Assembly (NCBI GenBank): GCA_963777945.1
Contig: CAVZSN010000006.1
Coordinates: forward strand, 194,834-258,833
Source of the DNA: an uncultured Actinomycetota bacterium
GTDB taxonomy: Bacteria > Actinomycetota > Thermoleophilia > RBG-16-64-13
Length of the DNA stretch: 64,000 nt
Direction: 5' to 3'
Made by a program: the position numbers and the translations under genes. The notes beneath the pieces are model-generated. The model was not told the DNA's origin and did no database searches. It saw only the letters and a list, made by a program, of their open reading frames with translations. Positions 36,112 to 56,034 of this stretch are shown here, piece after piece; within the stretch, counting starts at the first letter, position 1, and every line of letters starts with the position of its first letter.

Positions 36112-36113
36112 GT

Positions 36114-39474: not shown

Positions 39475-40275
39475 TCAATCGACCGGCAAACCGAAGAAGT
39501 CCCTCGGATTCTGGTAGCAGACCTTGTCGATGGTGGCCTTGTCGAGCCCGAACAGCTTCATGGCGAGGATCACCCGCGGGACCATGAAGTAGTCGTTGCC
39601 TTCCCCTCCGAGCTCGGAATTGATAATGATCTTGTCGCGCATCTCCGGGTGATCGATGACGTAACGAGCCGCGGGTTCCGGAGGCATCTTGTCCCAGCAT
39701 ATGGACAGCCCGACCATGCCCCCGGTCGTGGCCCGGTAGTCCAGCGTCTCCTCGCCCGCATGGTCGAAGACGCATCTCTCCACGGGGAAACCCTCTTCCT
39801 TGATGATCTCGAACACCTGTGGGAGCACGGTCTTACCCTGGGGTGCCAAGCGGATGGGGGTGTGGAGGATGACGGGAAGGTCATGCTTCTTGGCGAGCCG
39901 CAGATGCTCGCGGAACAGATCCTTCTCGTACTCGGTCGCGGTGTCGAGGCCGATCTCGCCGAGGGCGACCACCCGGTCTTCTCTGAGGAACTCGGGCAGC
40001 TTCGCCAGGCATTTCTCGGTGTCGGCACGGTTGACCCCGAAGAAGGGCACCGAGAGACTGGTGAAGAGCTCGAAACCCAGGGTCTTGGCTGTAGTGGTCT
40101 CCATGCCGAGAAAGCGCTCCCACAAGAGCTGAACGGCATCGGCATCACGACTGCCGAGGAACATGTGCGGGCTGGGGACTACCGCCGCCTCCATGCCCAT
40201 CATCACCAGCTTCTGCAGCTGCTTGTCCTCGATCATGTCGGTGTGCAGGTGGGCGTCGATAAAACGCATGGTCAC
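39475..40275 (-). CDS. TatD-like metal-dependent hydrolase (amidohydrolase superfamily)
   Basis: 266 aa, intact. N-terminal FIDAHLHTD (HxH metal motif), GEIGLD and ILHTP motifs. Confidence 0.7.
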   Translation of the reverse strand: MTMRFIDAHLHTDMIEDKQLQKLVMMGMEAAVVPSPHMFLGSRDADAVQLLWERFLGMETTTAKTLGFELFTSLSVPFFGVNRADTEKCLAKLPEFLREDRVVALGEIGLDTATEYEKDLFREHLRLAKKHDLPVILHTPIRLAPQGKTVLPQVFEIIKEEGFPVERCVFDHAGEETLDYRATTGGMVGLSICWDKMPPEPAARYVIDHPEMRDKIIINSELGGEGNDYFMVPRVILAMKLFGLDKATIDKVCYQNPRDFFGLPVD

Positions 40276-40278
40276 TCC

Positions 40279-40707
40279 TTATTCGTCCACGACGGCGATG
40301 GCGTCGATCTCGACCAGGCAGCGCGGATCCGTCGCCAGCCGCTGCACCTGGACGGTGGTGGAGGTGGGTTTGTATGCGCCCATGTACTCGTTCCACACCC
40401 TGTTCAGGTCGTCCTGGAGATCGAGGTCGGTGAGAAAGCGCTTGCAGTGGACCACGTTCTGGAGCGTCCCGCCGGCCGCTTCGACCGACCTCTTGAGGTT
40501 CTCCATGGTCATGCGGGCTTGGCTCAGCATGTCCGGGGGGATGCTGTCGAACTCGGCGGGCACGTGAGGATGACTGTGATACACCGGAGCCGCAGTGACC
40601 CCGGCGAAGAAGATGATGCTTCCCCCCGTCACCTTGATGGCCGGCGCATAGGGCATCATCACATCAGGGCGGTCCGGCCATTCGATGGGTTCGATCTTGA
40701 CGGTCAT
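40279..40707 (-). CDS. RidA/YjgF/L-PSP family protein
   Basis: 142 aa. ...IIFFAGVTA...ENLKRSVEAAGGTLQNVVHCKRFLTD...VQVQRLATDPRCLVEIDAIAV is the typical RidA-fold C-terminus. Confidence 0.8.
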   Translation of the reverse strand: MTVKIEPIEWPDRPDVMMPYAPAIKVTGGSIIFFAGVTAAPVYHSHPHVPAEFDSIPPDMLSQARMTMENLKRSVEAAGGTLQNVVHCKRFLTDLDLQDDLNRVWNEYMGAYKPTSTTVQVQRLATDPRCLVEIDAIAVVDE

Positions 40708-40826
40708 CGTTGCGCTCCTTTGCTCATCGTCCTCGGTCCGTGGCGAGGCTGGGACCCGCCCCCCGCAGGGGACAGGTCCCAGCCGTCGTGCGTCTTCAGC
40801 GAGACCTCACTCCGGACTCGCGAGGC

Positions 40827-41664
40827 TCACGCCTTCCAGATGGCGATGTCGCCGACGTTGATGTCTTTCGCGGTGATATCCACCGGACCGAACTTCTGGG
40901 TCAGGTAGCCGGGCTTCTCGATGAGCAGCGTGTAGACGCCGTCCTTGAGATCCCGCAGCCAGAAGTCGCCGTAGCTGTCGGAGGTCGCCTTGGCCTTCTC
41001 GCCGGTGGCGTTGTTGGTGGCGGTAACGGTCGCTCCTTCGGCGCACTCGTCCGCTTCCTGGTCGAACACCGCGCCGGCGATGAACTTCTTGGGTAGCCCG
41101 ATGTAGTACACCCTGGGCTTGACCTTGGCCAGAGCCGGCTTGAGCGGCTCGGCCTTGGCGATGAGGTCCTTGATCTTGGGATCGTCCTCGTCCCCGAAGG
41201 TGAAGGCTCCGGTCGGGACAGGCGTCCGCGCAGCGGGGCTCGCTCCAGCCGTCATCGAGAAGGTGCGCGCAGAACGTGCACTTCTGAGCGATGTTGAGAG
41301 CATCGTTGAAGTAGATGACGTTCTCGTACGGACAGGCCGCCAGGCACATCTGATTGCCGCGGCACTTGTCGGGGTCGATGATGACGATCCCGTCGGCGCG
41401 CTTGTAGATGGCGTGCGCGTTACAGGCCTCGATGCACGGAGCATCGTCGCAGTGCTGACAGATGCTGTGCTCGTACGTGACCTTGACCTTGGGCACCTGG
41501 CCGCGGACGTTGTCATGCACCTTGTTCCAGAACTGCCCGGTGTCGGGCTGCGGCTTGGCGATGGGCGACCAATCGTTGGCCACATGCTCGTCCTTGCACG
41601 AGACCTGGCAGTTGTAGCAGCCGTTGCAGATGTCGTAATTGATGACGAGTACCTTGCCCATCAT
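40827..41664 (-). CDS. 4Fe-4S beta subunit of a transhydroxylase-like molybdoenzyme (beta1), one frame change
   Basis: Ferredoxin Cys motifs CNGCYNCQVSC, CQHCDDAPCIEAC, CRGNQMCLAACP and CTFC...CADACP. The C-terminal Ig/carboxypeptidase-regulatory-like domain (ECAEGATVTATN...YGDFWLRDLKDGVYTLLIEKPGY) is in ORF 40827..41585. The frame change is at the G3 run 41225-41227. The ATG overlaps the alpha1 stop. Confidence 0.8.
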
Positions 41665-44286
41665 TCACCACCTATCAGGACGCACGCGTCTATACCGGGA
41701 CCCGCGCAGGGGTGGAAGGGCCGTGCGAAGGCTTCGGGGTACTTGGCTTTGAGGGCTTCCATGTCGGTCTTCTCGATGTCGACCAGGAACCCGCTCACCG
41801 CGTGGCCCACCGCGTTCTTGGACGTGGTGTGGCCGGGGACGATGGTGTTGATGGCTCCGCCGCGGTCGATGACGCCGGGTTCGATGGGATCCCATTTGGC
41901 GCCATGGTCGATGTAGACGACGTCGGGCATGATCCGCTCGGTTATGTACGCCCCGGCAAGAACAGTGCCACGCTCATTGAAGATGGACACGACGTCACCG
42001 TTCTTGATTCCGCGGGCCTCGGCCAGCGACGGGTGCAGCCAGACCGGATGGTACTGATAGCCGTCCGGACCGGTGATTTTGCAGGTCTCGATCTCCCTGA
42101 GCCAGGTGATGTCCTCGTGCTGGGAGTGGACGCTCCACCGCGGATGGTTGGAGCAGACCAGCAGGGGGTACTTGTTGGCGCGCTCGGTGCCCAGCGTCTC
42201 TTCGTGGCTGATGCCTTTGGCGACCCATTTGGGGACCGGCGGCCGTTCCAAGTCGTTGGGGAAGTTCTCCTTGAGACCGGTGGATTCGAACTCGAGTTTA
42301 CCGGTCGGAGTCGTCAGGGGATTCGCTTTCGGGTCTTCGTAGAAGCGCTGGAAGCCTGCCGGCTCATCCTCCCAGTTGTCCGCGGTGGGGATGACCAAGT
42401 AGCCCTTGTCGTTCAGGTCTTCCCAGCTGATGAGATCCGCGCAGCGGGAGGTCTCGTAGCCGTACTTGATGAGCTGCGGGATGGTCTTGCCACCCGTGTA
42501 CTCTTCCAACAGGCCCAGACGCTCGGCCATCATGCACGACGATCTCGTAGTCGCTGAAGGACTCGCCCAAGGGCTCGATGCACTTGTGCTCGGGAAAGAG
42601 CAGGTTGTACTGCCCGCTGAAGATGTCGCCGGCGATGTCGTCTTCTTCCAGCTTGGTGTTGACCGGAAGGATGATGTCGGCCAGCAGCGCGTCGTTCTCC
42701 AGCCAGGGATGCTGCGCCCACATGAACTCGATGTCGGTATGCTGCATGGCCCGGACGTACTCGTTCCCCGCGTTCCAGCAGGTGATCCACGACGGGGAGT
42801 CGGTCCACACCGCGTGGATCTTGGAGCAGCCCTCAGCGGGATAGAAGCGGTGGACGAACTGATCCTCGCGCGGAGCGGTCTCGGACTCGCAGCCCCACCA
42901 GTCACACTCACCCTCGAGGATAGCTTTAGGCACGTAGGTCTTGGGCAGCGAGGGGTGGTTGAGGTCGGAGGGATGGCCGCCGGTGTAGGCCGTCCGCAGA
43001 TTGGGCACCCGGAACGGCTTGGGCTGGGCATACTGATCGGGGAAGTCGAAGAGGCCCCACTCGATCATCTTGACCTGGTTGATACCGGGCTTGCCCAGAC
43101 CCTGCATGGCGAGGCAGATGTTCTGCAGGCGGGCGGGCTCGGTGGCGTACGGGCCGCGGATGCCGGGGCCGCCGTTGCCGATGACCACGCTGGTGCGTTT
43201 GGACGCCCACTCCTTGGCCAGCGCCTTGATGACCCGGGCCGACACTCCGCAGATGGGAGCCGCCCATTCCGGCGTCTTGGGGATGCCGTCTTCCTCGCCC
43301 ATGACGTAGGCCTCGTAGGCCTCGACGCCGATCGCGTGGGTCTTGAGATAGTCCTTGTCGTAGGTGCCGTCCTTGAACCACTGGTAGGTGATGGCGAGGT
43401 AGAGAGCCGCGTCCGTGTTGGGGAGGACGGGGATCCACCGGTCGGCGTGCACGGCCGCCGCGTAGTTGAGGTCCGGGCACACGTAGATCTGCTTGATGCC
43501 CAGCTCGGTGTACCAGTAGGAGAGCCGGCTGGGGAGCTGACCTTGCCAGCCCCACGGCGTGGTCTCCTGGTCGCAGCCCCAGAACAGAAGCAGTTCGCAG
43601 TTCTTGGCCACATCGTAGAGGAGGTTGCTCTGCTTGCCCTGGCCCACGGGCTCGCATCCCCAGAAGTGCTTGCTGCCCCACCACCAGCCTTCCCAGCTGT
43701 CGGGCTGACGGATCTGAAGGGTGTAGCCGCCCCACAGCGGAAGGAGCTTGCGCCCAGCGCCGTGGCAGGCCTGGACCACCTTGTTCTCGCCGTGCTGGTC
43801 GCACTGGTACAGGATGGCGGTCGGGCCATACGTCTCTTTGATCCGGTTCATCTCGCCGACGATAGTGTCGAGCGCTTCGTCCCAGGAGATGCGCACGTAC
43901 TTGCTCTTGCCCCGGTTCTGAGTATTGCGTCCGCCGGGCCCGGTGGAGCCGGGCGCGCCGCTCGGATCCCAGTCCACCCTCTTCATGGGGTAGCGGATTC
44001 GGGCCGGCGAGTAGACACGCTTCTTGTAGGCGATGGAATACGGTGGGATGAGGGTCTTCATGCTCGGCTCGAAGACCGATCCCCGCACTTCCATCTTCCA
44101 CGGGTTCATGTGCTTCTGGGGATCGTACTTCCAGTCGTAGTGCATCGGACGGATGCGGACTATCTTCCCGTCCTTCACATCCACCATCGAGGCGTTCGAC
44201 CCGTTCTCGGGGACCCCGCAGAAGCTGATGTCCCTGATGAGTGTCTTCTCGCCCGACTTACCGTTCGGGGCTCGATCTTCTGCCAT
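41661..44286 (-). CDS. molybdopterin (bis-MGD) oxidoreductase alpha subunit, pyrogallol-phloroglucinol transhydroxylase / resorcinol hydroxylase-like (alpha1), one frame change
   Basis: Start at the ATG at 44286, after GGAAGGAGG. N-terminal part is from ORF 42364..44307 and C-terminal part from ORF 41661..43031, joined near 42537 (SFSDYEIV|CMMAERLG by comparison with alpha2). About 875 aa. No RR Tat signal and no N-terminal Cys cluster. Confidence 0.8.
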
Positions 44287-44307
44287 CCTACCTCCTTCCG
44301 TATCCAA

Positions 44308-44337
44308 GCTATTCCGCTCAATGGAATAGCTATTCCG
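44308..44337. promoter_or_regulatory. candidate operator: inverted repeat plus extra half-site upstream of alpha1
   Basis: gctattcc-gctcaat-ggaatagc is a perfect 8-bp inverted repeat, immediately followed by tattccg. It lies 22-50 nt upstream of the alpha1 ATG and downstream of the IclR gene. Confidence 0.3.
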
Positions 44338-44448
44338 TCATTGCGGCCTACTAAGTGTGGCACGCGCCACCGGCGCGCGTCAATCCTCGGCTCCCGTCTC
44401 CGGGGCTTGATGGCCGCCGCGACCGCTGCCGGCCGGCTATCGCCTCCC

Positions 44449-45285
44449 CTAGAGCGACGTCCTGTCGGCAATCGAGGTACTGCGAAAGTAGGCGGTCATT
44501 TCCGCGGCCTTATTCTTGACGGCATCCGCATTCCTCCCGCGGGCCTCCGCACCGAAACGGTCTGACGGGGCCACCACGGTCAGCACAGCGAGCACGTCGC
44601 CGCCGGGTCCGAAGACCGGGGCCGAGACCGCGCAGACGCCCACGTCCTGCTCTTCCAGGTCGAACGCCACTCCCTCGCCGGCGGCCCGGTCGAGCATCGC
44701 CGCCAGCTCCGCCGGGTCGGTGGTCGTGTGAGGTGTGAACTTGAGTTGCGGCTCACGTAGCAGCCGCGCCTTCTCTTCGTCGGGCCTCGTCGCCACCCAC
44801 ATCCGGACGGCGGAGTTGGCCATGTTCGCGAGGATCCGACCGGTCGGCAGGTTGGGCTTGAACGGGTGGGAGGTGGCCACTTGATCGACGACCACGGCGC
44901 CCTGAGCGCTCTCCACCGTCAACTCGACCGTCTCCCCGGTGGCCTTCGCGAGATCCTCCAGGAACGGATGGGTGTAGCGGACGAAGCTGACATAGGAGAG
45001 GGCCAAGTAGGCCCCGGGGATCATGGCCCTGCCGAGGTGATAGCGTTCGGTATCGGGGTCGAAGGCCACGAACTCCTTCCACTCGAGGGTGCGGAGCACC
45101 CGGTAGGCCGTGGTCTTCGATATGCCGGTCCGTCGGCAGATCTCGTCGAGGCTCCACTCCGGGTGTTCCACATCGAAGAGCGCGAGGATGGAGAGCCCGC
45201 GAGCGAGCGCCTGCACATAAAGGTCGCTCTCCTCCTCCGAGCGCCCCGCCAGGGACGCGCGCGGCCGTCCTCCCGCCCTAGCCAT
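44449..45285 (-). CDS. IclR-family transcriptional regulator embedded in the molybdoenzyme cluster
   Basis: ORF 44449..45339. Start taken at the ATG at 45285 (MARAGGRPRASL...). wHTH ALARGLSILALFDVEHPEWSLDEICRRTGISKTTAYRVLRTL plus an IclR effector domain. Confidence 0.85.
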   Translation of the reverse strand: MARAGGRPRASLAGRSEEESDLYVQALARGLSILALFDVEHPEWSLDEICRRTGISKTTAYRVLRTLEWKEFVAFDPDTERYHLGRAMIPGAYLALSYVSFVRYTHPFLEDLAKATGETVELTVESAQGAVVVDQVATSHPFKPNLPTGRILANMANSAVRMWVATRPDEEKARLLREPQLKFTPHTTTDPAELAAMLDRAAGEGVAFDLEEQDVGVCAVSAPVFGPGGDVLAVLTVVAPSDRFGAEARGRNADAVKNKAAEMTAYFRSTSIADRTSL

Positions 45286-47900
45286 CCACCTTCTCCATCG
45301 AGTACGCCCGCGATGCACGGACCCGCGTCGGCGTGGCACTCCCGCTCGAACGCCTCCGGATAGCGACGGCGAAGGCCTTCCAGGTCGATCTTCTCCACCT
45401 CGGCCAGAAAACCGGACACCACCATCCCCACAGCGTTTTTGGAGGTCGTGTTCCGCGGCACGATGGTGTTGATGGCACCACCACGGTCAATCTCCCCTGG
45501 GACCACGGGATCGTACTTGGCCCCGTGGTCGATACCTACCACACCGGGCATGATGCGCTCGGTCAGATAGGCGCCGGCCAGTACCGTCCCGCGTTCGTTG
45601 AAGATGCTGACCACATCGCCGTGCATGACCCCCCGCGCCCGGGCGTCGGCAGGATTGATCCACAGCGGGTGGTAGTGGTATCCATCGGCGCCCCTCACCT
45701 TGCAGGTCTCGATCTCGCGGAACCAGGTGACATCGTCATGCTGGGAGTGGACTCCCCATCTGGGGTGGTTGCTCATCACGAGCAGCGGATACTTCTTGCT
45801 TCGCTCCGTACCTAGGGTTTCCGCATGAGTCGAGCCTTGCGCGATCCACTTCGGCACCGGTCCCCGTTCGTCGTCGCCGGGGAAATGCTCGGCCAGACCG
45901 GTAGCGTAGAATTCGAGCTTGCCGGTGGGGGTGGTGAGCGGATGTCCCTCCGGATCTTCGTAGAACTCGATCATCCCGGCCGGGATCCTGTCCCAGTCGG
46001 GATCGGGCGAGACCACGTAGTAGCCCTTCTCGTTCAACTCTTCCCAGCTGATCAGATGAGCGGCCCCCGAGCGTTCGTACCCAGCGCGGATCAGTTCCGA
46101 TACCGTCTTCCCGCCGGTATATGCCTCAAGCAGCCCTAGACGGTCGGCAATCTTGCAGACGATCTCGTAGTCGCTGAACGACTCACCCAGAGGCTCCACA
46201 CAGCGCGTCTCCGGAAACAGCAGGTTCATCTGCCCGCCGAACACATCGTTGGCGATATCGTCCTCCTCGAGCTTGGTGTTGACCGGCAGGAGGACGTCGG
46301 CAAAGAGGGCATCATTCTCCAGCCACGGGTGCTGGCAGAAAATGAACTCTATCGAATCGTCCCGCATGGCCTGGATGAAGTGGTTCCCTTCGTTCCAGCA
46401 CGTGATCCAGGAAGGGGAATCGGTCCAGATCATGTGGATGCGAGAGGCGCCTTCGACCGGATACTGGTAGTGGACGAACTGGTTCTCCCGGGGGGCGAAC
46501 TCCTCCTCCGCACCCCACCAGTCGACCGAACCCTCCAGAATGGCTCTCGGCACCAGGCTCTTGGGAACGAAGTTCGGATGAGTGTCGCCCGGCGTGCCTC
46601 CTGTGTAGCCAGCAAGCACGCTCGTGAACACCGAGGGCGCAGGAGGGGACATCTGCTCGTAATCGTGGTGCAGACCCCACTCGATCATCTTGGACTGATT
46701 GCATCCTGGCTTCCCGAGGCCCTGCATCGCTAGGCACAAGACCTGCAGCCGAGCAGGCTCCGTGGAGTACGGGCCGCGGATGCCCGGGCCGCCGTTGCCG
46801 ATGACGACCGTGGTCCGTTTCGACGCCCATTCGGCGGCGAGGGCCTTGATGATGCGGGCTGGGACTCCGGTGATCGGCTCGGCCCACTCCGGGCTCTTCG
46901 GCACACCGTCCTCCCGCCCCATCACGTAGGCCTCGAACATGTCGACGCCGTAGGCGTGAGTCTCGAGATACGCCTCGTCGTACGTGCCGTCCTTGAACCA
47001 CTGGTAGGTGATGGCTAGGTAGAGCGCGGCATCGGTGTTGGGCAGTACGGGGATCCACTTGTCGGCGTGGACAGCATTGGCGTAGTTGCAGTCGGGCGCT
47101 ATGTAGATCTGCCTGATGCCGAGCTCCGTCCACCAGAAGCTCAGCCGGCTGGGAAGTTGCCCTCCCCAACCCCAGGTGGTGGTCTCCTGGTCACAGCCCC
47201 AGAACAAGAGAAGTTCCGCGTTCCTGGAGATGTCGAGAAGTAGGTTCTTCTGCGGCATCTGCTGACCCACCGGTTCGCAGCCCCACACGTGCTTGGCGCC
47301 CCACCACCAGCCTTCCCAGCTATCGGGCTGGCGCGCCTGGAGTGTGTACCCGCCGAACAGACGCAAGAGCTTGCGCCCGCACCCGTGCGGACCGTGGACC
47401 ACCTTGTTCTCACCGTGCTGGTCCGACTGATACAGGATGGCCTCCGGTCCGTATCGCTCCTTCATCCGCAGCATCTCGCTGGTGACGATGTCGAGCGCCT
47501 CGTCCCAGGAGATGCGCACGTACTTGCTCACCCCACGGTTCTGGATGTTGCGCCCACCCGGACCGGCGGAGCCGGGCGCGCCCGCCGGGTCGAAGTCCAC
47601 CCGCTTCATCGGGAACCGGATGCGGGCGGGTGAGTACACGCGCTTCTTGTACGCCAAACTGATGGGTCCGATGAGGCTCTTGTCGCTTGGCTCGAAGGTC
47701 TTGCCCCGAGCGTGCATCACCCAGGGCTTCACTTCCTCCCGGGTGTACCGCTCGTAGTACCGGGCCGGACGGATGCGGATGATCTTCCCGTCCTTGACGT
47801 CCACCATGGCCGCGTTCGCCCCTGCCCCCACGCCGCACCAGCTGAGGTCGCGGACGATGGTCCGCTCTCCCTGTGTCGCGCGTTCGTTGCTCTCCCGCAT
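45021..47900 (-). CDS. transhydroxylase-like molybdoenzyme alpha subunit (alpha2), no adjacent beta; ORF lacks a stop at the expected end (~45291)
   Basis: Start at the ATG at 47900, after GAGGGGG. Collinear with alpha1 at roughly 70% identity by eye, as far as ...YPEAFERECHADAGPCIAGVLDGE. The last ~90 codons are Arg-rich and run out of frame through the IclR gene, so they are probably not real protein. Confidence 0.8.
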   Translation of the reverse strand: MRESNERATQGERTIVRDLSWCGVGAGANAAMVDVKDGKIIRIRPARYYERYTREEVKPWVMHARGKTFEPSDKSLIGPISLAYKKRVYSPARIRFPMKRVDFDPAGAPGSAGPGGRNIQNRGVSKYVRISWDEALDIVTSEMLRMKERYGPEAILYQSDQHGENKVVHGPHGCGRKLLRLFGGYTLQARQPDSWEGWWWGAKHVWGCEPVGQQMPQKNLLLDISRNAELLLFWGCDQETTTWGWGGQLPSRLSFWWTELGIRQIYIAPDCNYANAVHADKWIPVLPNTDAALYLAITYQWFKDGTYDEAYLETHAYGVDMFEAYVMGREDGVPKSPEWAEPITGVPARIIKALAAEWASKRTTVVIGNGGPGIRGPYSTEPARLQVLCLAMQGLGKPGCNQSKMIEWGLHHDYEQMSPPAPSVFTSVLAGYTGGTPGDTHPNFVPKSLVPRAILEGSVDWWGAEEEFAPRENQFVHYQYPVEGASRIHMIWTDSPSWITCWNEGNHFIQAMRDDSIEFIFCQHPWLENDALFADVLLPVNTKLEEDDIANDVFGGQMNLLFPETRCVEPLGESFSDYEIVCKIADRLGLLEAYTGGKTVSELIRAGYERSGAAHLISWEELNEKGYYVVSPDPDWDRIPAGMIEFYEDPEGHPLTTPTGKLEFYATGLAEHFPGDDERGPVPKWIAQGSTHAETLGTERSKKYPLLVMSNHPRWGVHSQHDDVTWFREIETCKVRGADGYHYHPLWINPADARARGVMHGDVVSIFNERGTVLAGAYLTERIMPGVVGIDHGAKYDPVVPGEIDRGGAINTIVPRNTTSKNAVGMVVSGFLAEVEKIDLEGLRRRYPEAFERECHADAGPCIAGVLDGEGGWLGREDGRARPWRGARRRRATFMCRRSLAGSPSSRSSMWNTRSGASTRSADGPAYRRPRPTGCSAPSSGRSSWPSTPIPNAITSAGP

Positions 47901-48055: not shown

Positions 48056-48079
48056 GGGGCCCGTCGCATGACGGGCCCC
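48056..48079 (-). terminator. intrinsic terminator between beta3 and alpha2
   Basis: On the minus strand, ggggcccgtc-atgc-gacgggcccc (10-bp stem) is followed by tttcttttcg. It lies about 35 nt after the beta3 stop. Confidence 0.7.
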
Positions 48080-48112
48080 GATCGTCAGACTACGTCGTTT
48101 GCGTCGGGCCGG

Positions 48113-48951
48113 CTACGCCCTATCGAGCATCACGAGACCCAGGTTGAGGCTCTCGTCGAGCGTAACGGTCCTGGACACGGCCTTGTAGCCCTCGGCCGCG
48201 ATGGTCACGTCGTAGCTCTTGCCGGGCTCGAGATGGTCGACTACGAACTCGCCGTAGTTGTTGACCATACCTTCGCCGACGACGGCGCCTGCAGCAGAGA
48301 CGGTGACTTTCGCGCCCTCGGCACACTCATCGGTGTCCTTGAAGGCGACGCTGCCGAAGCGAACACCTTGGTCCACCGGTGCAGGTTCTTGTACCAGACG
48401 CGGGGCTTGGCGCCCAGTTCGGGCCTGAGGACTTCCAGGCCGTCTGCCGCGACCAGACCGGCCATCTCGGCGTCGTCGGTAAGAACCAACTTGATCGCCT
48501 CGGTGGGACACACCATGCTGCACCGGGTCTCGGTCCATCCGGCGTCGAGCAGATGCGCACATCCGGTGCACTTCTGCGCCAGTTGCAGCTCTTCATTCCA
48601 GTAGATGACCTCGTACGGGCAGGTCTTGACGATCTCCGGATGTCCCTTGGCCTTCTCCGGATCGATGATGACGAGACCGTCTTCGCGCTTGTACACCGTG
48701 CCCGCGGGCGAATCCTTGATGCAGGGGGCGTCATCGCATTGCAGACAGGGGGTGGGCCGGAACACCGGCTGGACGATGGGGTGCTGGCCCCGCTCTTTGC
48801 GTTCGATGTTCATCCAGCGATGCCCCGTCCACGGCTGAGCCAGGGAGTAGGGCGGGAAGTCGTTACCGACGAACTCGTCCTTGTCGGAGAGGAAGCAGTC
48901 GTTGCAGTCGTGGCAACGAGCCAGGTCGATCACCATGTTCCACTTCTTCAT
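48113..48951 (-). CDS. 4Fe-4S beta subunit (beta3), one frame change
   Basis: Start at the ATG at 48951, overlapping the alpha3 stop (ATGA). Cys motifs CHDCNDCFLS, CLQCDDAPCI, CPYEVIYWN and CTGCAHLL...CSMVCP. The C-terminal Ig-like domain (ECAEGAKVTVS...YGEFVVDHLEPGKSYDVTIAAEGY) is in ORF 48113..48571. The shift is near 48366-48375. Confidence 0.8.
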
Positions 48952-51543
48952 TTGGCCTTGCCCTCCCATTTCTCCACCTGGATGAGGCACGAGTTGTTGG
49001 CCATTGAGGTAGAAGTCGGTGTGATGTAGCGTTTGGGTGCGAGAATATTGACACATCCCGAGGTATCCGGGGAGTAGCCGGGCTCACCCAGCGGCAGGTA
49101 GTCCGCGCACGATTCGTAGGAGTGCACCGTCCCGGCGGGCACGCGCTCGCTGATGGCGGCGGCCAGAATGACCGACCCCCGATCGTTGTAAGCCTGGATC
49201 AGGTCGTGGTGCTTGATGCCGCGCGCTTCGGCGTCTTTGGTGTTGATGCGCATGACCCAGTACTTGTGGCCGTCGATCAGAACGCGGTGGTCCTTGACGT
49301 CGTTGAGCCAGCTCTCCTTGGAGTCACCCATGGTGTGGAAGCTGAACCGCGGGTGCGGCGACACCATCTGCAGCGGGTAGGTGCTGTAGCTCGGCGTCCG
49401 GTGGCCTTCCCAAGAGGGGATGTATTGGGGGCCCATGACCGGCCGTTCGGGATCGATGTTGCCGCCCTCCTCGAACCGCCTCAGGCTGCTCGACACGAAC
49501 TCGATCTTGCCTGTGGGGTCTGCAGGCCCTTCGAGCGCGACGGTGTCGGCAGGGTGCGGACCCCAGTCGGGAGTGTCCTTCTCCCGGCCCTCCGCGAACC
49601 AGCGCATGGCCGGGGTGGACTTGTGGTCTTTCGGGAAGGGGACGACGACGTAGCCCTTCTTCTCGAACTCCTCCCAGGTGGTGATCTTGGGGAGGTCGGT
49701 GGCGTAGAAGTATTCCTTCACCCACTGCAGCTCGTCCTTGCCACCCATGGTGAAGATCGGCCCGATGCCCAGCCGCTCCGCGAACATGCGGAAGATCTCG
49801 TAGTCGGATTTCGACTCACCCAGCGGCTCGATGCACTTCTTCTGCAGCACGATCATACGGTGATTCACCTGTGCGCCCGTATGCGGGATGTAGCCCGAGC
49901 AGTTGGCGAACTCGCTGATGTCCCAGCGCTCGAAGTTGGTGCAGGCGGGAAGGATGATGTCGGCGAAGCGGGCCTCACCCTCGAACCAGATGCACTGGTT
50001 GACGACCATTCCGATCTTGCCTTCCCGGTACGCCCGGACGTAGCGGTTGGTCTCGGTCATGGTGCCGATGAAGGAGGTGCCGTACTTCCAGTACATCTGC
50101 ACGTGCGGGTAGCCGGGGGCCGGATACTCGTACTTCTGAAATTGTGACTCGATCGAGGAGCCGCAGAAGCCCTTGCCGTGCCAGCGCACCTTCTCGTGCA
50201 TCATGGCTTCGGGGATATTGATCCTGGGAATGGTCTGCCCCTCGGTGGAGTGGTGGGCAGTCCGGGTCGCGCCCCGCTTGTTCGCGAACATGCGGTACAC
50301 GAACTCGTATCCGGCGGCCGAGTTGTCGACGTCACCGGAGATGCCACCCTCGGCGTAGCCGGGGAAGAAGAACGACTCGTCGCTGGGAGCTCCCTGCGAG
50401 GTGCCCCAGATGTTGCTGCCCGGCTTGCCGTAGCCCTGCATGGCGGCGAGAGCGATCATGACCCGGGCCCACTCGTTGCCGGTGGCGGAACGGCAGGCAC
50501 CGCCCCAACCGCCAAGACCTCCAGCGGCCAGCATGGTCTTCTTGCTGCCCCATTCGCGAGCCAGAGCCCGGATCTCGCGCGCCGGGATCCCACACTCGGT
50601 CTCGGCCCACTCGGCGGACTTGGCCACGCCGTCGGTCTTGCCGAGCACGTAGTCTTTCCACTCGTCGAAGCCGTGGGTGCGAGCAGCCACGTATTCCTTG
50701 TCGTAGAGGTCCTCGGTCAGCCAGGTGTGCGCGACACCAAGACCGAACGCCACATCGGTGCCGAGCCGAGGCGAGAACCACTTGTCGGCGAACAGGGTCG
50801 CCGTCGGATTGTAGTAGGGATCGACGAACACCATCTTGATCCCGAGTTCCTTGCATCCAGAAACGGCGTGGTGTGCTCTCGAAAGCGGAGTAGATGCCGC
50901 CGCCGGTGGTCTCCGGGTCGGATGACCAGAAGACGACCATCTCGGTGTGCTTGAGAGCGTCTTCCAGGAGGTCGTACTGTTCGGGGATGCCGAGGCGGTG
51001 GCTGTTGCCCCACATGTGGATCCCGCCCCAGTGCCAACCTTCCCAGCTGTCGGGGTTGTGTTCACCGTAGGTGAAACCGACGAGGTTCATGAAGCGGAAA
51101 TAGGTGCTGTGCCGGTAGCCCACGTTCCCCCACAGGTGGTGCGAACCAGGGGTGGACAGGATCGCGGCGGGGCCGACTTCCCTCTTGAGCCGGATGATCT
51201 CGTCGCACACGATGTCGAGCGCCTCGTCCCAGCTGATCGGCTCGTACCCGGAAACGCCGCGGTTCTGGATGTTACGCTCGCCCTTGGGATCGAAGTCCAC
51301 CCTCTTCAGAGGCGTGAGAACGCGCTTGGGCGAATAGACCATGGACCTCTGCGCCACCGCGTGCGGGGACAGGGTCGTCCGGCGTTTGGGCTTGAATGTT
51401 CGACCCCGAGCTTGGATGGTCCAACCTTCGGGATCACTCTCTTGCAGGTCGATGGGGAACATGCGGATGATCTTGCCGTCCTCCACATCCACGAAGAGTG
51501 GCCCCCCGGTCGTTCCATTTGTGAATCTCTCGACTTTTCCCAT
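48948..51543 (-). CDS. transhydroxylase-like molybdoenzyme alpha subunit (alpha3, more divergent), one frame change
   Basis: N-terminus from ORF 50332..51543 (MGKVERFTNGTTGGPLFVDVEDGKIIRMFP...PDSWEGWHWGG) and the rest from ORF 48948..51065, joined near 50853. About 865 aa. No Tat signal and no N-terminal Cys cluster. Confidence 0.8.
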
Positions 51544-51738
51544 ATTGTCCCGACCTCCGCTCGCTCAAGTTGACCGCGGTCTTGTTCGTTGTGCGCATTC
51601 CATGATTGTAGGGCTGCTGCCCCCCATAATCTACGGCACCGGTACCTCGCCCAGAGGCGAATGGCCGCCGCATCCCCCAACTATCCCAACAGACGGAACC
51701 GGCTGCCGCTACGCGGTCCACCAGTGGCCGATCGTAGA

Positions 51739-51772
51739 GAGCCCCCCGCCGGCCGACGCCGGCGGGGGGCTC
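51739..51772 (-). terminator. strong GC hairpin downstream of the cyclase-family gene
   Basis: gagccccccgccggc-cgac-gccggcggggggctc is a perfect 15-bp stem, about 60 nt after the stop at 51832. There is no clear U tract, so it could be a terminator or a processing/stability element. Confidence 0.5.
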
Positions 51773-51831
51773 CGAACGGCCTGCTGAGCCGGACCGCCTC
51801 ACTCGCCTTGCTGCGAGCGGGAGCGGGCAGC

Positions 51832-52820
51832 CTACTTCAGCGGGTAGATGTCGTAGCGTTCCTTCTCGGCGGCCGGGCCGTAACCGGTACCGCAGTAGGT
51901 GTAGGTACGATCCGGAACGCCCTTGTTGACCTGATCTTCGTCGATCTCGGCCACGCAGCGGACCATCGAGCCGTCGCCCATGTACCAGCGGATCGGGAAG
52001 CAGTAGAACCGGAAGCGCTTGCCGGCCACCTTGTCCAGGTCTCCGCCGAGGTTCTCAACGCCGACGATGCCATGACCCAGCATCTGCTTGTGGCAGGGTT
52101 CCCACGTTCCCCATTCGCCGAGCGCTTCGAGCTCGCCGTATCTGGCGTCGTAGGCCTCCTTGCCGTGCAGCTTGATGTAGAGCTCGCGGTCGAATTCGGC
52201 ATAGGCCTCTTCACCGAACTGCTCGGCGTATTCTTCAGTGATCGTCCTGCCGGATTTGCCGAGCAGGTTCATCCGCGGCGGCCCGTTGTTGCCCATGGCC
52301 GTGTGAAGCGGATGGTCAAGCGCCTGCGAATCCATGGCAACGCACTTGGGCCCGTACTTGACGAACCATTTGCCGGCTTCGAGACCGGTACCGCATGCGT
52401 AGTGGTAGTAGTCCTTGGAGTCGTCGAACAGGCGATGCATGCCGGTGTTGAGGCACACGACCATGCCCTTGAGTTCGGTCGGTTTGATGTTCGCCCGCTC
52501 GCAGGCGTCTTCGAGATGCGGCGGGCACGGATCAGGCCCCACTGGTGGATCTTGATCTCGAGGCAGACCGCGTCGCCCGTGTAGGCGTCAACGGGCATCT
52601 CGTGGGTGTAGCGAGCCCTTTTGCCGTTGAATTCCCGCTCCATGACGTGACGGGGGGCGTCGGCGTGGGTGCCGGTGTGCTGGACACAGTCGACCCTCTG
52701 CGTGAGGACGCCGCCCTTGGCCATGGTGTGCATCGAATCGATGACCGGTTTCACGAAATACGGCCAGCGAGGGATCTCTGCACTAAATGGATGTGTCAGA
52801 TCGACCCATACTTTCCCCAT
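51832..52820 (-). CDS. cyclase-family (kynurenine formamidase / isatin hydrolase fold) metal hydrolase; candidate dihydrophloroglucinol cyclohydrolase; one frame change
   Basis: N-terminus from ORF 52269..52820 (MGKVWVDLTHPFSAEIPRWP...HTGTHADAPRH, the cyclase-family His motif). C-terminus from ORF 51832..52542. The shift is at the C4 run 52537-52540. Confidence 0.75.
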
Positions 52821-52926
52821 AGTCCCTACTCATCTCCTTTGCTCGTTGCCTTATGACTGACGGGCGCACGATGCGTCCGATCTGTCCTCTATTTGCACCG
52901 GCGGTCTGCCGGTGTCTCCCATTCTC

Positions 52927-53892
52927 CTAGCTGCCGGCCTCCGCCTCGTTCATCTCGCGCACTGCCTTGGTCAAGTAGCCGAGCAGACGGCTGCGAAGCG
53001 CTTTCTGCTCCTCGGGCGTCCAGGTCTGGTAACCGACGCCGCCCGTCTTGAAGCCCAGTTCGTTCTTGGCCACCTTCTCCTTGAGGAGCGGCGAAGGCTC
53101 GTGCGAGTCCTCCAGGTATTTGAGCACGTAGTTGTGTATGGACAGCGTGAGGTCGAGCCCGACCATGTCGGCGTTCTCGCACGGAGCGAGCACCGGCAGG
53201 CGCAGCCCTGGCCCGTACTTGAGGCTCTCGTCCACGGTCTTGGGATCAGCGATGCCCCGCTCGACGATGGACAGAGCCTCTCGCCACAAGGCGTGCTGCA
53301 GCCGGTTGGCGATGAAGCCCGGGACGTCCTTCTTGCAGTGCACCGGCCGCTTGCCGATGGCCTTGTGCAGCTCCATGGTGACATCGATGACCCAGGCCGG
53401 CGTCTCTTCGGTCTGGACCACCTCGACCAACGGGATGAGGAACGGCGGGTTCCACCAGTGAGTCCCGATTATCCTGTCGCGCTTCTGGGACTTGCTGCCG
53501 ATCTCCGTCGGGCTCATCACCGAGGTGTTGGTCGCCAGGATGGCGTCCGGCTTACACATCTGATCGAGCTTCTGGAAGGTGTCCTGCTTGAGGCCCATAT
53601 CCTCGGCCACGCATTCGAGCACGAAATCCGCGTCGGCCGCAGCCTCCGCCATGTCCTGGGTGGTGCTGACCCGGGCCATGGTAGGCTCGACGTCTTCCAG
53701 CGTGCCCAGGCCGCGCTCGGCCAGGAACGTCAGGTCGCTCCGCATCGCCTCGATGCCCTTCTCCAAGGTCTCCGCTCTGCGGCTGTACATGCCGACCGGA
53801 TAGCCGGCAGCCGCGAAGACCATGGCGCAGCCGTGCCCCATGCTGCCACCACCGACGATCGCGATCTTCTTGACGTCCTCCAGTTTCATCAT
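52927..53892 (-). CDS. 3-hydroxyacyl-CoA dehydrogenase-family NAD-dependent dehydrogenase (carnitine / gulonate 3-dehydrogenase-like); candidate 3-hydroxy-5-oxohexanoate dehydrogenase
   Basis: 321 aa, intact. Rossmann IAIVGGGSMGHG, and the family core NTSVMSPTEIG...HWWNPPFLIPLVEVV. Confidence 0.8.
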   Translation of the reverse strand: MMKLEDVKKIAIVGGGSMGHGCAMVFAAAGYPVGMYSRRAETLEKGIEAMRSDLTFLAERGLGTLEDVEPTMARVSTTQDMAEAAADADFVLECVAEDMGLKQDTFQKLDQMCKPDAILATNTSVMSPTEIGSKSQKRDRIIGTHWWNPPFLIPLVEVVQTEETPAWVIDVTMELHKAIGKRPVHCKKDVPGFIANRLQHALWREALSIVERGIADPKTVDESLKYGPGLRLPVLAPCENADMVGLDLTLSIHNYVLKYLEDSHEPSPLLKEKVAKNELGFKTGGVGYQTWTPEEQKALRSRLLGYLTKAVREMNEAEAGS

Positions 53893-54695
53893 CCGGCCAC
53901 CGCCCCGCCGTCCACAGAGAGGATGAGGCCGGTCACGTAGTCAGACGCCGGAGAGGAGAGGTAGACGCAGGCGCCGATGAAGTCGTCCAGTTCGGCGGCC
54001 CGGCCCATGGGGATGCGTGCCATGAAGATCTTGACCATCTCCGGGTTGTCGCGGACCTGCTGGGTGAGCGGAGTCCAGAAGATGGAGGGGGCGATGGCGT
54101 TGACGTTGATCCTGTACTTGGCCCACTCGGTCGCCAGCTGTTTGGTGAGCAGGTGGACGGCCCCCTTGGAGGTGCCATAGGCCGCATATCCGCCGGGATG
54201 GCCGAGGAACCCGCGCACTGAACCGATGGTGATGACCTTGCCGCCGTCGCCCTGCTTGATGTATTCGGCGCCGGCATACTTCGCGCACAGCAGAGTGCCA
54301 CGGACGTTGACGTTCATGACCTTCTGCCACTCTTCGATGTCGAACGTCTCAGCGGGCTGGCGGTTGCCGGCGGTGCCGGCCACCGTGACCATGATGTTGA
54401 CCTTGCCGAAGTCCTTGACCACGCCCTCCATGGCGGCCTTGACACTGTCGTCCGAGGTCACGTCGACGGCGGAGGCGGTGGCGTTCTTGCCCAGGCCTTT
54501 GATGTCGGCCACTACATCGTCCATGATGTCGGTCTTGATGTCCCAGCACGCCACGTCGGCACCGAAGACCGCGAGTCCTTTGGCAAGCGCATGACCCAGG
54601 GTGCCGCCCGCGCCGGTCACTACCGCCACCTTGCCGGAGAGATCGAAGATCTTCCTGAGTTCCTCGACCGACTTTCTTGGTGTTTCTTCAGCCAT
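53889..54695 (-). CDS. short-chain dehydrogenase/reductase; candidate phloroglucinol reductase
   Basis: 268 aa, intact. TGAGGTLG cofactor motif and YGTSK catalytic motif. 4-nt overlap with the downstream gene. Confidence 0.85.
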   Translation of the reverse strand: MAEETPRKSVEELRKIFDLSGKVAVVTGAGGTLGHALAKGLAVFGADVACWDIKTDIMDDVVADIKGLGKNATASAVDVTSDDSVKAAMEGVVKDFGKVNIMVTVAGTAGNRQPAETFDIEEWQKVMNVNVRGTLLCAKYAGAEYIKQGDGGKVITIGSVRGFLGHPGGYAAYGTSKGAVHLLTKQLATEWAKYRINVNAIAPSIFWTPLTQQVRDNPEMVKIFMARIPMGRAAELDDFIGACVYLSSPASDYVTGLILSVDGGAVAG

Positions 54696-54738
54696 TCCCT
54701 TACCTCCCGATCAGCTTTGTCGTCTTCGCTCCGCCGGC

Positions 54739-55089
54739 CTAGGCTTCCTTGGGCATGCCCAGGATCACCATCATGCTCGCCGGGTACTGGGTCTTGTTCT
54801 TTATCGAACGGCCTTCGTCACCGGCGATGAAGATGGAGTCGTGAGCCTCAAGGACTATGTCTTTGCCATCTTTGTCGGTGATGGTGATCTCGCCGTCGAT
54901 GCAGAGATAGATAGTGTCGAACGGCCTTCCTGGGCTGAAATCGGCTCCGCCACCCGGCAGGAAGTGCGTGCAGCCCAGAGAGAACTGGGTGGTCCCCGTC
55001 TCTTCCTTGCCCTGCAGCCTGAAGCAGGCGCAGTCATTGTGCGCGGGAGGGAAATACCGCACTGCGTCACTGATCGAAACCTTCTTCAT
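54739..55089 (-). CDS. cupin-domain protein
   Basis: 116 aa. Small beta-barrel-type sequence (FLPGGGADFSPG...YLCIDGEITITDKDGKDIVLEAHDSIFIAGDE). Function unknown. Confidence 0.6.
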   Translation of the reverse strand: MKKVSISDAVRYFPPAHNDCACFRLQGKEETGTTQFSLGCTHFLPGGGADFSPGRPFDTIYLCIDGEITITDKDGKDIVLEAHDSIFIAGDEGRSIKNKTQYPASMMVILGMPKEA

Positions 55090-55098
55090 TCCTCACTC

Positions 55099-56034
55099 CT
55101 ACATCCGGCGACCATGGTCGCATTGCCGGCCACAGAGCCCGTTCTGACCACTCCGGCGAACGCGCTCGCTCTTTCGGCCGGGCTGACGCCCGACCGGACG
55201 ATGCCTTACTTCTTGGGAGAGCAGGCCCAGGATCTGCCGGGCCTCGGCCGGGCTGGCGACCGGACGACCGAACTCCTTGGCCAGACGCTGCACCTTCTCG
55301 ACGAACTCGAAGTTGTGCTGCGCGAGCACACCCTTGCTCAGGTAGACGTTGTCTTCCATGCCCACCCGCACATGGCCGCCCATGTTGATGGCCATGGCCA
55401 TGATGAGGTTAGCCGTGGGGCCGCAGCCGAACGCCGACCAAGTCGATCCCTCCGGCAGCGAGTCCACCAGGTGGACCAGGTTGCGCGCCGAGCCTTCCAT
55501 CCCACCGTGCACATGCATGCAGCACTGCCAGTGGATGGGCGCCTTGAGGAACCCGTCGGCCAGGAGACGTTTGGCGTTCCACACCATGCCGGCATCGAAC
55601 ACTTCCACTTCGGGCTTGATGCCGTGTTCGATATAGGCCGCACCCAGCTTCTCCAGGAACAGCGGGCTGTTCTGGAAGACACCTTTGTAGAAGTTCATGG
55701 TGCCGGCATCGAAGGTGCCCATGTCGGGCTTGAGTATCGTGTGAGGGTGGATGCGCTCTTCGTCGCTGAAACCCAGACCGCCGGAGGAGGTCATGTTGAG
55801 GACGATATCGGGGCACTTCTCGCGGACCAGGCTGACGGTCTTCTCGAACCTGTCGACTGCCATGGTGGCCTTGCCCTCTTCGGTGCGTACGTGGATATGG
55901 GCAATAGCGGCCCCGGCCTGGTACGCGCCGTACACCTCCTCGGCGATCTCCTCGGGCTGAGTCGGCAGATGGGGCGTGTTCTCTTTGGTGGTCATCGCCC
56001 CGGTCGTCGCCACGGTGATGATGAGCTTCTCCAT
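55099..56034 (-). CDS. beta-keto acid cleavage enzyme (BKACE / DUF849 family); candidate triacetate acetoacetate-lyase
   Basis: Start at the ATG at 56034, after GGAGGTCGAAC (MEKLIITVATTGAMTTKENTPHLPTQPEEIA...AAIAHIHVR...HVRVGMEDN, BKACE TIM-barrel motifs). The last ~35 codons are Arg/Gly-rich. A PKK-stop in another frame near 55200 suggests the true end may be there. Confidence 0.8.
   Translation of the reverse strand: MEKLIITVATTGAMTTKENTPHLPTQPEEIAEEVYGAYQAGAAIAHIHVRTEEGKATMAVDRFEKTVSLVREKCPDIVLNMTSSGGLGFSDEERIHPHTILKPDMGTFDAGTMNFYKGVFQNSPLFLEKLGAAYIEHGIKPEVEVFDAGMVWNAKRLLADGFLKAPIHWQCCMHVHGGMEGSARNLVHLVDSLPEGSTWSAFGCGPTANLIMAMAINMGGHVRVGMEDNVYLSKGVLAQHNFEFVEKVQRLAKEFGRPVASPAEARQILGLLSQEVRHRPVGRQPGRKSERVRRSGQNGLCGRQCDHGRRM

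Follow-up and report, generated by a model that had tools for sequence, protein, structure and literature searches.

The window analyzed here, a stretch of 64,000 nucleotides from contig CAVZSN010000006.1 (assembly GCA_963777945.1) of an uncultured Actinomycetota bacterium, carries on its minus strand a run of 13 genes, from 56034 down to 39475, that is likely to be a chromosomal catabolic locus for hydroxylated benzenes, made up of three modules in a Thermoleophilia/Gaiellales-type soil bacterium. The first module is a pair of molybdoenzyme genes (alpha3 and beta3) matching the pyrogallol-phloroglucinol transhydroxylase, the second is a ring-opening operon for phloroglucinol, and the third holds two further large subunits (alpha1 and alpha2) and the iron-sulfur (Fe-S) subunit beta1, together with regulator and importer genes. 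The chemistry of the first two modules is known, and the interesting part is the alpha1/beta1 family. It may be noted that an earlier note on this DNA, made by a model from the letters alone (hereafter the original prediction), had described the locus as a 17-kb same-strand island predicted to degrade trihydroxybenzene-type polyphenols anaerobically. Its gene order, its strand and its gene families were recovered for all 13 genes from open reading frames (ORFs) and Pfam (Table 1), and some of its other claims had to be narrowed or given up, as described with the results that bear on them.

The best solved relative of all three alphas and both betas is the transhydroxylase of Pelobacter acidigallici (AthL/BthL, PDB 4V4C). 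AthL is the top match for each alpha by a margin of at least about 190 bits (1268 bits for alpha3, 440 for alpha1 and 432 for alpha2, as against about 233-248 for dimethyl sulfoxide (DMSO) reductases and 67-79 for the thiosulfate/polysulfide reductase type), and by these scores none of the three is of the polysulfide, tetrathionate or nitrate reductase type, in agreement with the original prediction. The alpha3 protein, corrected for a frameshift, aligns with AthL from end to end at 63% identity, its best DMSO reductase match reaching only about 247 bits, and beta3 matches BthL at 267 bits and 48% identity, followed by the next match at 93 bits. Also, alpha3 and the relative L001_a865 keep every one of the AthL pocket residues checked (H144, Y152, R153, D174, S175, W354, Y404, F468 and Y560), and the start codon of beta3 overlaps the stop of alpha3. 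In beta3, 11 of the 12 cluster-binding Cys residues of BthL are present and the immunoglobulin-like (Ig-like) part aligns; Cys23 is replaced by Asp, also in the relative from locus L001, and the cluster at this position may be Asp-ligated or of the 3Fe-4S type in the transhydroxylase of this lineage. Judged by these alignments, alpha3/beta3 appears as a clear, true ortholog of the pyrogallol-phloroglucinol transhydroxylase.

The other two alphas share 38% identity with AthL and 71% with each other. We aligned 132 sequences (14 alpha1-type, 115 alpha2-type and 3 from the transhydroxylase clade) and found S175, D174, H144 and W176 to be invariant in the alpha1/alpha2 family (n = 129), whereas R153 is Cys in the alpha1 type or Pro in the alpha2 type, Y152 is Ala or Gly, W354 is Gly, and the loops with Tyr404 and Tyr560 are deleted. 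The family would then have in common with the transhydroxylase the Ser/Asp/His core but not the pocket for substrate and cosubstrate, and its members are not expected to be transhydroxylase isoenzymes. On a neighbor-joining tree of the alpha1/alpha2 family and the transhydroxylase clade only, rooted on AthL, alpha1 and alpha2 fall into one clade separated by a long branch from the transhydroxylase clade, where alpha3 pairs with its ortholog beside AthL; the alpha1 type branches as a compact group from within the many alpha2-like lineages. None of the three alphas has an RRxFLK twin-arginine signal or the N-terminal Cys/Fe-S (FS0) motif, and PF21423, the AhtL-like first domain, is present on alpha2 and, with few exceptions, on the relatives listed for alpha1 and alpha2.

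The partner subunit differs as well. Subunits of the beta1 type have 15 Cys residues, 3 more than BthL, and the extra ones (C80, C101 and C107) align with the PsrB ligands of a cluster that is absent from BthL, the pattern C-x2-C-x4-C-x3-C ... C-x5-C-x3-C-P being as in EbdB. Therefore, beta1 may be taken as a four-cluster electron wire, which a transhydroxylase does not need. It probably holds three 4Fe-4S clusters and one 3Fe-4S cluster, and would have regained the fourth cluster or never lost it. The ATG of beta1 overlaps the stop of alpha1. We infer that alpha1/beta1 does not shuffle hydroxyl groups but works with net electron transfer, as a hydroxylase or dehydroxylase. The view in the original prediction that the locus has three transhydroxylase-type alphas is thus upheld for alpha3/beta3 but not for alpha1 and alpha2, which have a remodeled pocket and belong to a sister clade, while beta1 is of another Fe-S type.

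The ring-opening operon was compared with the anaerobic phloroglucinol pathway of Zhou et al. 2023 (PMC10470551), which consists of the short-chain dehydrogenase/reductase (SDR) PGR (phloroglucinol reductase), the Mn-dependent cyclase-family enzyme DPGC (dihydrophloroglucinol cyclohydrolase), the 3-hydroxyacyl-CoA dehydrogenase (3HCDH)-family enzyme TfD and the BKACE-family enzyme TAL. Reference sequences of DPGC and TfD were taken from the supplement of that paper by optical character recognition, so that the following identities are approximate: the window's DPGC has 83% identity to CsDPGC and 72% to FpDPGC, and is closer to CsDPGC than CsDPGC is to FpDPGC, and its TfD has 51% identity to both CsTfD and ErTfD, these two being 52.5% identical. 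DPGC also keeps the metal-binding motif HTGTHxDAP (here HTGTHADAP) and the motif GHGIVGVENL; a PDB sequence search for it gave only kynurenine formamidase-type fragments. The SDR gene stops within the start of TfD (translational coupling) and is syntenic with DPGC and TfD in loci of Actinomycetota and Chloroflexota, and by operon position, coupling and synteny the SDR is a putative PGR. The BKACE protein scores 339 bits with PF05853, 321 bits with the closest NCBIfam model, Kce (cut-off 382), and 199 bits with the 3,5-dioxohexanoate model (cut-off 430); no NCBIfam model is matched at its cut-off by any protein of the locus. The original prediction of a phloroglucinol ring-reduction and cleavage module is therefore borne out by identity for DPGC and TfD, whereas the BKACE and SDR genes fit it by family and operon position only. 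Its word "anaerobically" is unproven; the chemistry is O2-independent, and the pathway cluster also occurs in facultative aerobes (PMC10470551). A small cupin gene, unmentioned by Zhou et al. (PMC10470551), lies between BKACE and SDR or TfD in relatives, Chloroflexota included, at 42-93% identity. As a side observation, the best NCBIfam match of the cupin is a model named for a 113-aa "beta-D-galactosidase" of Mycobacterium tuberculosis (83 bits, below cut-off).

The alpha1/alpha2 family is large, with more than 120 clusters at 80% or more identity to alpha1 and more than 120 at 70% or more to alpha2, and the database names of its members are generic or wrong. Across phyla the alpha1/beta1 type keeps 80-93% identity and is more conserved than the transhydroxylase itself. 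Among the best 80 species-representative genome matches the carriers are mostly Thermoleophilia/Gaiellales and other Actinomycetota; others are Chloroflexota/Dehalococcoidia, Oscillospiraceae (with bins of Flavonifractor and Ruthenibacterium among them), Desulfobacterota, Acidobacteriota and a single bin labeled Proteobacteria. A synteny map of 78 loci was made, and linkage was counted within a 10-kb neighborhood on the 48 loci of at least 20 kb. An alpha1-type gene was found in 33 of the 48, with a transhydroxylase within 10 kb in 22 of these 33, DPGC in 11 and both in 8, whereas none of the 15 alpha2-only loci lies near a transhydroxylase or DPGC. The exact gene order of the window recurs in loci L003 and L007, and the Chloroflexota loci L046, L052 and L068 are compact clusters in which alpha1/beta1 and the transhydroxylase are joined by the complete lower pathway. 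In L001 and L002 the number of alphas per locus is four or five, three or four genes of the alpha2/alpha1 type standing in tandem after the transhydroxylase (10001-18056 in L001 and 10001-22390 in L002), so that the copy number in the locus varies between species. The arrangement is not rare, and multi-copy operons had been described before in Chloroflexi MAGs (PMC3971608, PMC4959651). The original prediction knew of no described locus with three such alphas beside the whole lower pathway.

The neighborhood on the 3′ side of beta1 is conserved to different depths. RidA adjoins beta1 in L003, L004, L007, L065 and L071. The TatD-like gene is found beside beta1 in the closest relatives only, and its best solved relative is AF_1765; a role as hydroxybenzoate decarboxylase was considered for it and set aside, the match to PF04909 being too thin (E 1.6e-4). 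Directly 3′ of the TatD-like gene we found a LivK-type ATP-binding cassette (ABC) importer with a binding protein, two ATPases and two permeases, followed by a second IclR gene (IclR2). The importer genes have the same order in at least 17 relatives and are intact in L049, and IclR2 follows them in 9 listed relatives at 68-87% identity. In the LivK-type binding protein, the signal or lipoprotein region is followed by a linker rich in Thr and Ala. The IclR-alpha1-beta1-ABC module is found again in Actinomycetota and also in a metagenome-assembled genome (MAG) of a gut Oscillospiraceae bacterium, L049, in the order IclR, alpha1, beta1, binding protein, ATPases, permeases (8595-18725). There its GC content is 60-62% against a background of 53-55%, and because the module stands out in this way, the composition suggests its horizontal transfer.

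At a distance of 50 nt upstream of the ATG of alpha1 there is a 14-bp palindrome, GGAATAGCTATTCC, to which a third half-site is adjacent; the palindrome occurs once in the window as against 0.02 times expected. It is present in 22 of 52 alpha1-type loci, mostly at -47 to -53, and all 22 palindrome-bearing loci, from two phyla and including that of the Oscillospiraceae MAG L073, have an IclR match; IclR matches of 54-88% identity adjoin alpha1-type genes. We consider the palindrome a strong candidate, on its position and recurrence, for the operator of IclR. The ATG of the IclR gene overlaps the corrected stop of alpha2 by 8 nt. The hairpin and the terminator of the original prediction are both present by folding; the hairpin has perfect arms of 15 nt (51739-51753 and 51758-51772). 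Pattern scans gave no sigma-70-like promoter match.

The computed results are homology, residue conservation, the order of the genes, cis elements and co-occurrence; all substrates, the way the electrons flow, the regulation and the reading of the frameshifts as sequencing errors are inferred. In the resulting proposal, alpha3/beta3 would be a cytoplasmic enzyme with molybdenum bis-molybdopterin guanine dinucleotide (Mo-bisMGD) and a serine Mo ligand that converts pyrogallol to phloroglucinol, moving a hydroxyl between pyrogallol and the cosubstrate 1,2,3,5-tetrahydroxybenzene (the tetrol) with no net redox change. The BKACE-cupin-SDR-TfD-DPGC genes would be co-transcribed with alpha3/beta3 or just ahead of it, in a unit ending at the terminator 48056-48079. 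The SDR would reduce phloroglucinol to dihydrophloroglucinol, DPGC would open the ring hydrolytically to (S)-3-hydroxy-5-oxohexanoate, TfD would oxidize this to triacetate, and BKACE would turn triacetate and acetyl-CoA into acetoacetate and acetoacetyl-CoA. A second transcription unit would run alpha2-IclR-alpha1-beta1-RidA-TatD and then through the LivK-type importer and the second IclR gene. Its alpha1/beta1 enzyme is predicted to act on another hydroxy-aromatic imported by the ABC system (candidates are resorcinol, catechol, hydroxyhydroquinone, pyrogallol, to give the tetrol, and hydroxybenzoates such as gallate), and its product would enter the first two modules as pyrogallol, phloroglucinol or the tetrol. 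IclR would sense the imported compound and control alpha1/beta1 through the palindrome upstream of alpha1, and alpha2, working with a borrowed beta subunit, may likewise be a redox enzyme of the hydroxylase or dehydroxylase kind.

A more specific form of this proposal, which we put forward tentatively and hold to be possible rather than probable, is that alpha1/beta1 represents a new, environmentally abundant class of cytoplasmic Mo-bisMGD hydroxylase/dehydroxylase that is the natural partner of the transhydroxylase and passes electrons via its four-cluster beta subunit. It could, for example, make or regenerate 1,2,3,5-tetrahydroxybenzene from pyrogallol, or convert an imported hydroxy-aromatic (resorcinol, hydroxyhydroquinone, gallate or another hydroxybenzoate). 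To our knowledge, the in vivo origin of the tetrol cosubstrate has been open since the enzyme was described. If the proposal is true, it would explain both the source of the cosubstrate in vivo and the "extra transhydroxylases" in many uncultured bacteria of soil, sediment and gut.

A point that the original prediction does not mention is that 7 of the 13 genes (BKACE, cyclase, alpha3, beta3, alpha2, alpha1 and beta1) are broken in the sequence as written. Five of them (alpha1, alpha3, beta1, beta3 and the cyclase gene) are each split over two frames, and BKACE and alpha2 have lost their stop codon. By alignment to 3-4 independent relatives we mapped nine single-base indels (7 insertions and 2 deletions), 8 in these genes and 1 in TrpA. 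The inserted bases lie near 55220 in BKACE (whose ORF as written runs on to 55099), near 52520-52527 in the cyclase gene (two bases), at 50853 in alpha3, near 45299 in alpha2 (where the stop codon is taken out), at 42537 in alpha1 and at 41214 in beta1, and a base is deleted near 48358 in beta3. On correction the lengths become 275 (BKACE), 328 (cyclase), 864 (alpha3), 279 (beta3), 873 (alpha2), 874 (alpha1) and 278 aa (beta1), close to those of intact relatives (274 aa for BKACE, and the same 873 aa in the closest relatives of alpha2). The subunit sizes of about 875 and 275 aa given in the original prediction thus hold for the corrected genes and not for the genes as written. TrpA (57165-57970, minus strand) is 228 aa as written, and one base added near 57326 gives 268 aa as in relatives. 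LeuS (12604-15220, minus strand) is split over overlapping frames, with the N-terminal catalytic part at 13865-15220 and the editing and C-terminal parts at 12604-14475, which makes single-base indels a window-wide feature; the ABC importer genes beside the locus carry frame damage too. A seven-state frame hidden Markov model for counting frameshifts over the whole window was dropped, as it mis-assigned strands in this high-GC sequence (TatD/RidA and BKACE/cupin were put on the plus strand).

Because the essential genes LeuS and TrpA are also affected and the relatives are intact (those of L001 and L002, for example), the indels are most likely assembly errors. The opposite reading, that the locus is a set of decaying pseudogenes whose frameshifts are real and whose pathway does not function in this host, can draw on the eight indels that interrupt 7 of the 13 genes as given and on their position outside obvious homopolymer runs. 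But the same type of indel is found in LeuS, TrpA and the ABC genes outside the pathway, the broken genes have neither in-frame stops nor large deletions, and protein identity to intact relatives is 85-93% on either side of each shift. Also, other related MAGs, presumably from long reads to judge by their names and contig labels, show split matches in different genes. We therefore consider decay very unlikely.

For the alphas, three further readings were weighed against the one proposed here. Least credible of all, to the point that we give it hardly any weight, is that they are S- or N-oxide reductases of the trimethylamine N-oxide (TMAO), DMSO or biotin sulfoxide type. JGI names of relatives include "trimethylamine-N-oxide reductase" and "S/N-oxide reductase-like", and the best NCBIfam models are bisC_fam, dmsA and torA, but these are matched at about 260-330 bits against cut-offs of 778-1465, the AthL score is almost twice that of any DMSO/TMAO reductase, and each of alpha1 and alpha3 comes with a translationally coupled, BthL-like beta that has an Ig-like domain, and no Tat signal is present. 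It is also unlikely, although less so, that alpha1/beta1 and alpha2 are redundant copies, that is, further isoenzymes of the same transhydroxylase. This would agree with AthL/BthL as best solved relatives of the same size and domain order and without export signal, and with the AhtL-like first domain on alpha2 and its listed relatives; in many genomes the true transhydroxylase adjoins, and PMC3971608 and PMC4959651 annotate the copies in this way. However, identity to AthL is 38%, Arg153, Tyr152, Trp354 and the Tyr404/Tyr560 loops are lost in 129 of 129 sequences, the Cys pattern of beta1 is that of a four-cluster redox subunit, and the clade, set off by a long branch, varies less across phyla than the transhydroxylase does. 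The strongest competitor, though we find it doubtful, takes alpha1/beta1 as the ortholog of a known anaerobic hydroxylase, either resorcinol hydroxylase (RhLS, Azoarcus anaerobius) or 3,5-dihydroxybenzoate hydroxylase (DbhLS, Thauera aromatica AR-1), feeding a hydroxyhydroquinone route in place of the phloroglucinol one. The RhL/PgtL family is recognized as one of Ser-coordinating MopB catalytic subunits (Wells et al. 2023, PMC10100899), and by score all three alphas group with PgtL (AthL) in this broad family, and not with DorA/TorA, DmsA or BisC; RhLS and DbhLS are its other described members and perform net redox hydroxylation (PMC10100899). A four-cluster beta subunit would suit such chemistry. 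The LivK-type importer could carry an aromatic acid. But no hydroxyhydroquinone-pathway genes were seen in the locus, the consistent neighbors are the transhydroxylase and phloroglucinol genes, and RhLS and DbhLS come from nitrate-reducing Betaproteobacteria, a group to which none of the best 80 genome matches belongs.

Several observations weigh against the proposed catabolic locus as well, beside the doubtful but competing RhLS/DbhLS reading. The SDR has 36.5% identity to 5G4K, which we take to be the solved clostridial phloroglucinol reductase, as against 39.6% to a KduD-type SDR; it is no closer to 5G4K than to unrelated SDRs, and the PDB sequence search was non-discriminating. The BKACE gene is a putative TAL by its family and operon position only, and the functional roles given to the AthL pocket residues reportedly go back to Messerschmidt et al. 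2004. In about one-third of the alpha1-type loci neither a transhydroxylase nor phloroglucinol genes lie within 10 kb, and some alpha1/beta1 pairs are solitary, one with an integrase gene as its neighbor. Near alpha1/beta1 there is no gene for an electron-transfer partner, and no characterized member of the alpha1/alpha2 clade was found in the literature searched. Also, were the indels real, most of the locus would be dead.

Beyond its catabolic genes, the locus has the features and boundaries listed in Table 1. The conserved block reaches past the 39475 edge of the original prediction, extending from 33073 to about 56100. The tRNA-Leu(CAA), the sole match of an Rfam scan, sits between a BldD-like helix-turn-helix (HTH) gene and BKACE, and the junction TrpA/HTH/tRNA-Leu/BKACE is kept in 7 relatives; an ORF at 56179-56568 on the minus strand that overlies the tRNA is spurious. 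GC content is 63% in the locus and 65-66% in the flanks. The idea of a recently acquired genomic island at tRNA-Leu was considered and rejected on the kept junction and the small GC difference, and for the same two reasons the locus is a stable feature of the lineage and the term "island" in the original prediction is not supported. Outside the locus the window is ordinary chromosome (PolA, UvrB, RpsA, LeuS, TrpAB and 2-oxoacid dehydrogenases), and its nearest relatives are Thermoleophilia/Gaiellales MAGs, in line with the actinobacterial backbone that had been predicted. Genes of a tripartite ATP-independent periplasmic (TRAP) transporter, DctM and DctP, were seen at 16807-20057 on the minus strand, about 20 kb off the locus.

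Table 1. Features of the locus and its edges, by position in the window.
Feature	Position	Strand	Evidence and remarks
IclR2, second IclR-family regulator	33073..33894	-	Pfam HTH_IclR and IclR_C; outermost gene of the conserved block
Two LivH/LivM-type permease genes and two ABC ATPase genes	34100..37700	-	BPD_transp_2 and ABC_tran fragments in different frames; all frame-disrupted
Substrate-binding protein, LivK type	37770..39259	-	Peripla_BP_6 halves on two overlapping ORFs; two frameshifts
Weak terminator-like stem-loop, 3′ of TatD-like gene	39295..39315	-	Fold z -1.7
TatD-like/amidohydrolase-superfamily metal hydrolase	39475..40275	-	PF01026 2.9e-14; weak PF04909
RidA/YjgF-family protein	40279..40707	-	PF01042 1.7e-19
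beta1, Fe-S subunit	40827..41664	-	162 bits to BthL; 15 Cys; C-terminal Ig-like domain
alpha1, Mo-bisMGD subunit	41661..44286	-	440 bits to AthL; sister clade of transhydroxylase
Candidate IclR operator	44307..44336	.	Palindrome GGAATAGCTATTCC 44323-44336 and third half-site 44307-44315
IclR-family regulator	44449..45285	-	Pfam
alpha2, Mo-bisMGD subunit, sister clade	45278..47900	-	432 bits to AthL; without own beta gene
Intrinsic terminator after beta3	48056..48079	-	10-bp G+C stem, then UUUCUUUUCG; z -4.1
beta3, predicted transhydroxylase small subunit	48113..48951	-	267 bits, 48% identity to BthL
alpha3, predicted pyrogallol-phloroglucinol transhydroxylase large subunit	48948..51543	-	1268 bits, 63% identity to AthL
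Very stable hairpin, gap between cyclase gene and alpha3	51739..51772	-	-53.7 kcal/mol, z -6.2; no U tract
DPGC, dihydrophloroglucinol cyclohydrolase (cyclase family)	51832..52820	-	83% identity to CsDPGC
TfD, (S)-3-hydroxy-5-oxohexanoate dehydrogenase	52927..53892	-	Pfam 3HCDH_N and 3HCDH; 51% identity to CsTfD
SDR, putative phloroglucinol reductase	53889..54695	-	Pfam; role by operon position
Small cupin	54739..55089	-	Cupin_2 just under Pfam cut-off
BKACE-family enzyme, putative TAL (triacetate acetoacetate-lyase)	55206..56034	-	PF05853 339 bits
tRNA-Leu(CAA), locus edge	56346..56433	+	ARAGORN and Rfam

Phloroglucinol is the hub of the O2-free mineralization of tannins and flavonoids in peat, sediments and guts. 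Abundant uncultured Thermoleophilia/Gaiellales carry, in one regulated block, a predicted complete route from pyrogallol to acetoacetate, and in at least 4 phyla a second molybdoenzyme is tightly linked to the phloroglucinol route. In the literature searched we did not find described the split between the true transhydroxylase clade and the clade with remodeled pocket and four-cluster beta, nor a systematic association of the latter with the transhydroxylase, DPGC, IclR, the operator and the ABC importer, nor its presence in Thermoleophilia. The alpha1-type enzyme is now annotated as "TMAO reductase", as "selenocysteine-containing dehydrogenase" or, in MAG papers, as pyrogallol transhydroxylase; its substrate, once known, would correct the annotation of polyphenol metabolism, in which CAMPER-type pipelines and MAG studies count such genes, and the enzyme could reveal a new entry reaction into the phloroglucinol pathway. 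The IclR gene, the palindrome and the dedicated binding protein are experimental handles on this substrate.

Among known systems, the PGR-DPGC-TfD-TAL cluster of Clostridium scatologenes (PMC10470551) has the same four enzyme families in one operon. In the window, however, the gene order differs, a conserved cupin is added, the SDR is distant (36.5% to 5G4K), and the operon is fused to both the transhydroxylase and a second molybdoenzyme module. Its host, an actinobacterium of the Thermoleophilia type, is outside the taxa in Data set S4 of that paper. Multiple "pyrogallol hydroxytransferase" operons have been reported in the Chloroflexi MAGs RBG-2 and RBG-1351 and the single cell DEH-C11 (PMC3971608, PMC4959651), where two or three AthL/BthL-like pairs per genome of these uncultured sediment bacteria were read as polyphenol catabolism; the loci L046, L052 and L068 show such pairs as well. 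Those reports leave the two clades unseparated, predate the lower pathway and do not report linkage to DPGC, TfD, TAL, IclR and the importer. RhLS and DbhLS resemble alpha1/beta1 as Ser-ligated cytoplasmic two-subunit Mo enzymes on hydroxybenzenes (PMC10100899) with the net redox chemistry that beta1 suggests, but their hydroxyhydroquinone-pathway partners are absent from the window locus, and the taxonomic range of the alpha1 type (Actinomycetota, Chloroflexota, Oscillospiraceae, Desulfobacterota and Acidobacteriota) differs from theirs; the comparison is one of description and context. With the four-cluster betas EbdB (of ethylbenzene dehydrogenase), NarH and PsrB, beta1 has in common the EbdB motif groups II and III and the extra Cys residues on PsrB ligands. 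Overall it is closer to BthL (162 bits, as against 105 and 82), whose type of Ig-like C-terminal domain it retains, and its partner alpha1, unlike the type II systems of the DMSO reductase family, is without the FS0 cluster. AthL itself has only the fold and the Ser/Asp/His core in common with alpha1 and alpha2, whereas alpha3/beta3 resembles AthL/BthL in the full-length match, the Mo-Ser ligand, the pocket residues, the lack of an export signal and a beta with an aligned C-terminal Ig-like part that is predicted to hold three clusters, and differs at BthL Cys23, which is Asp in beta3.

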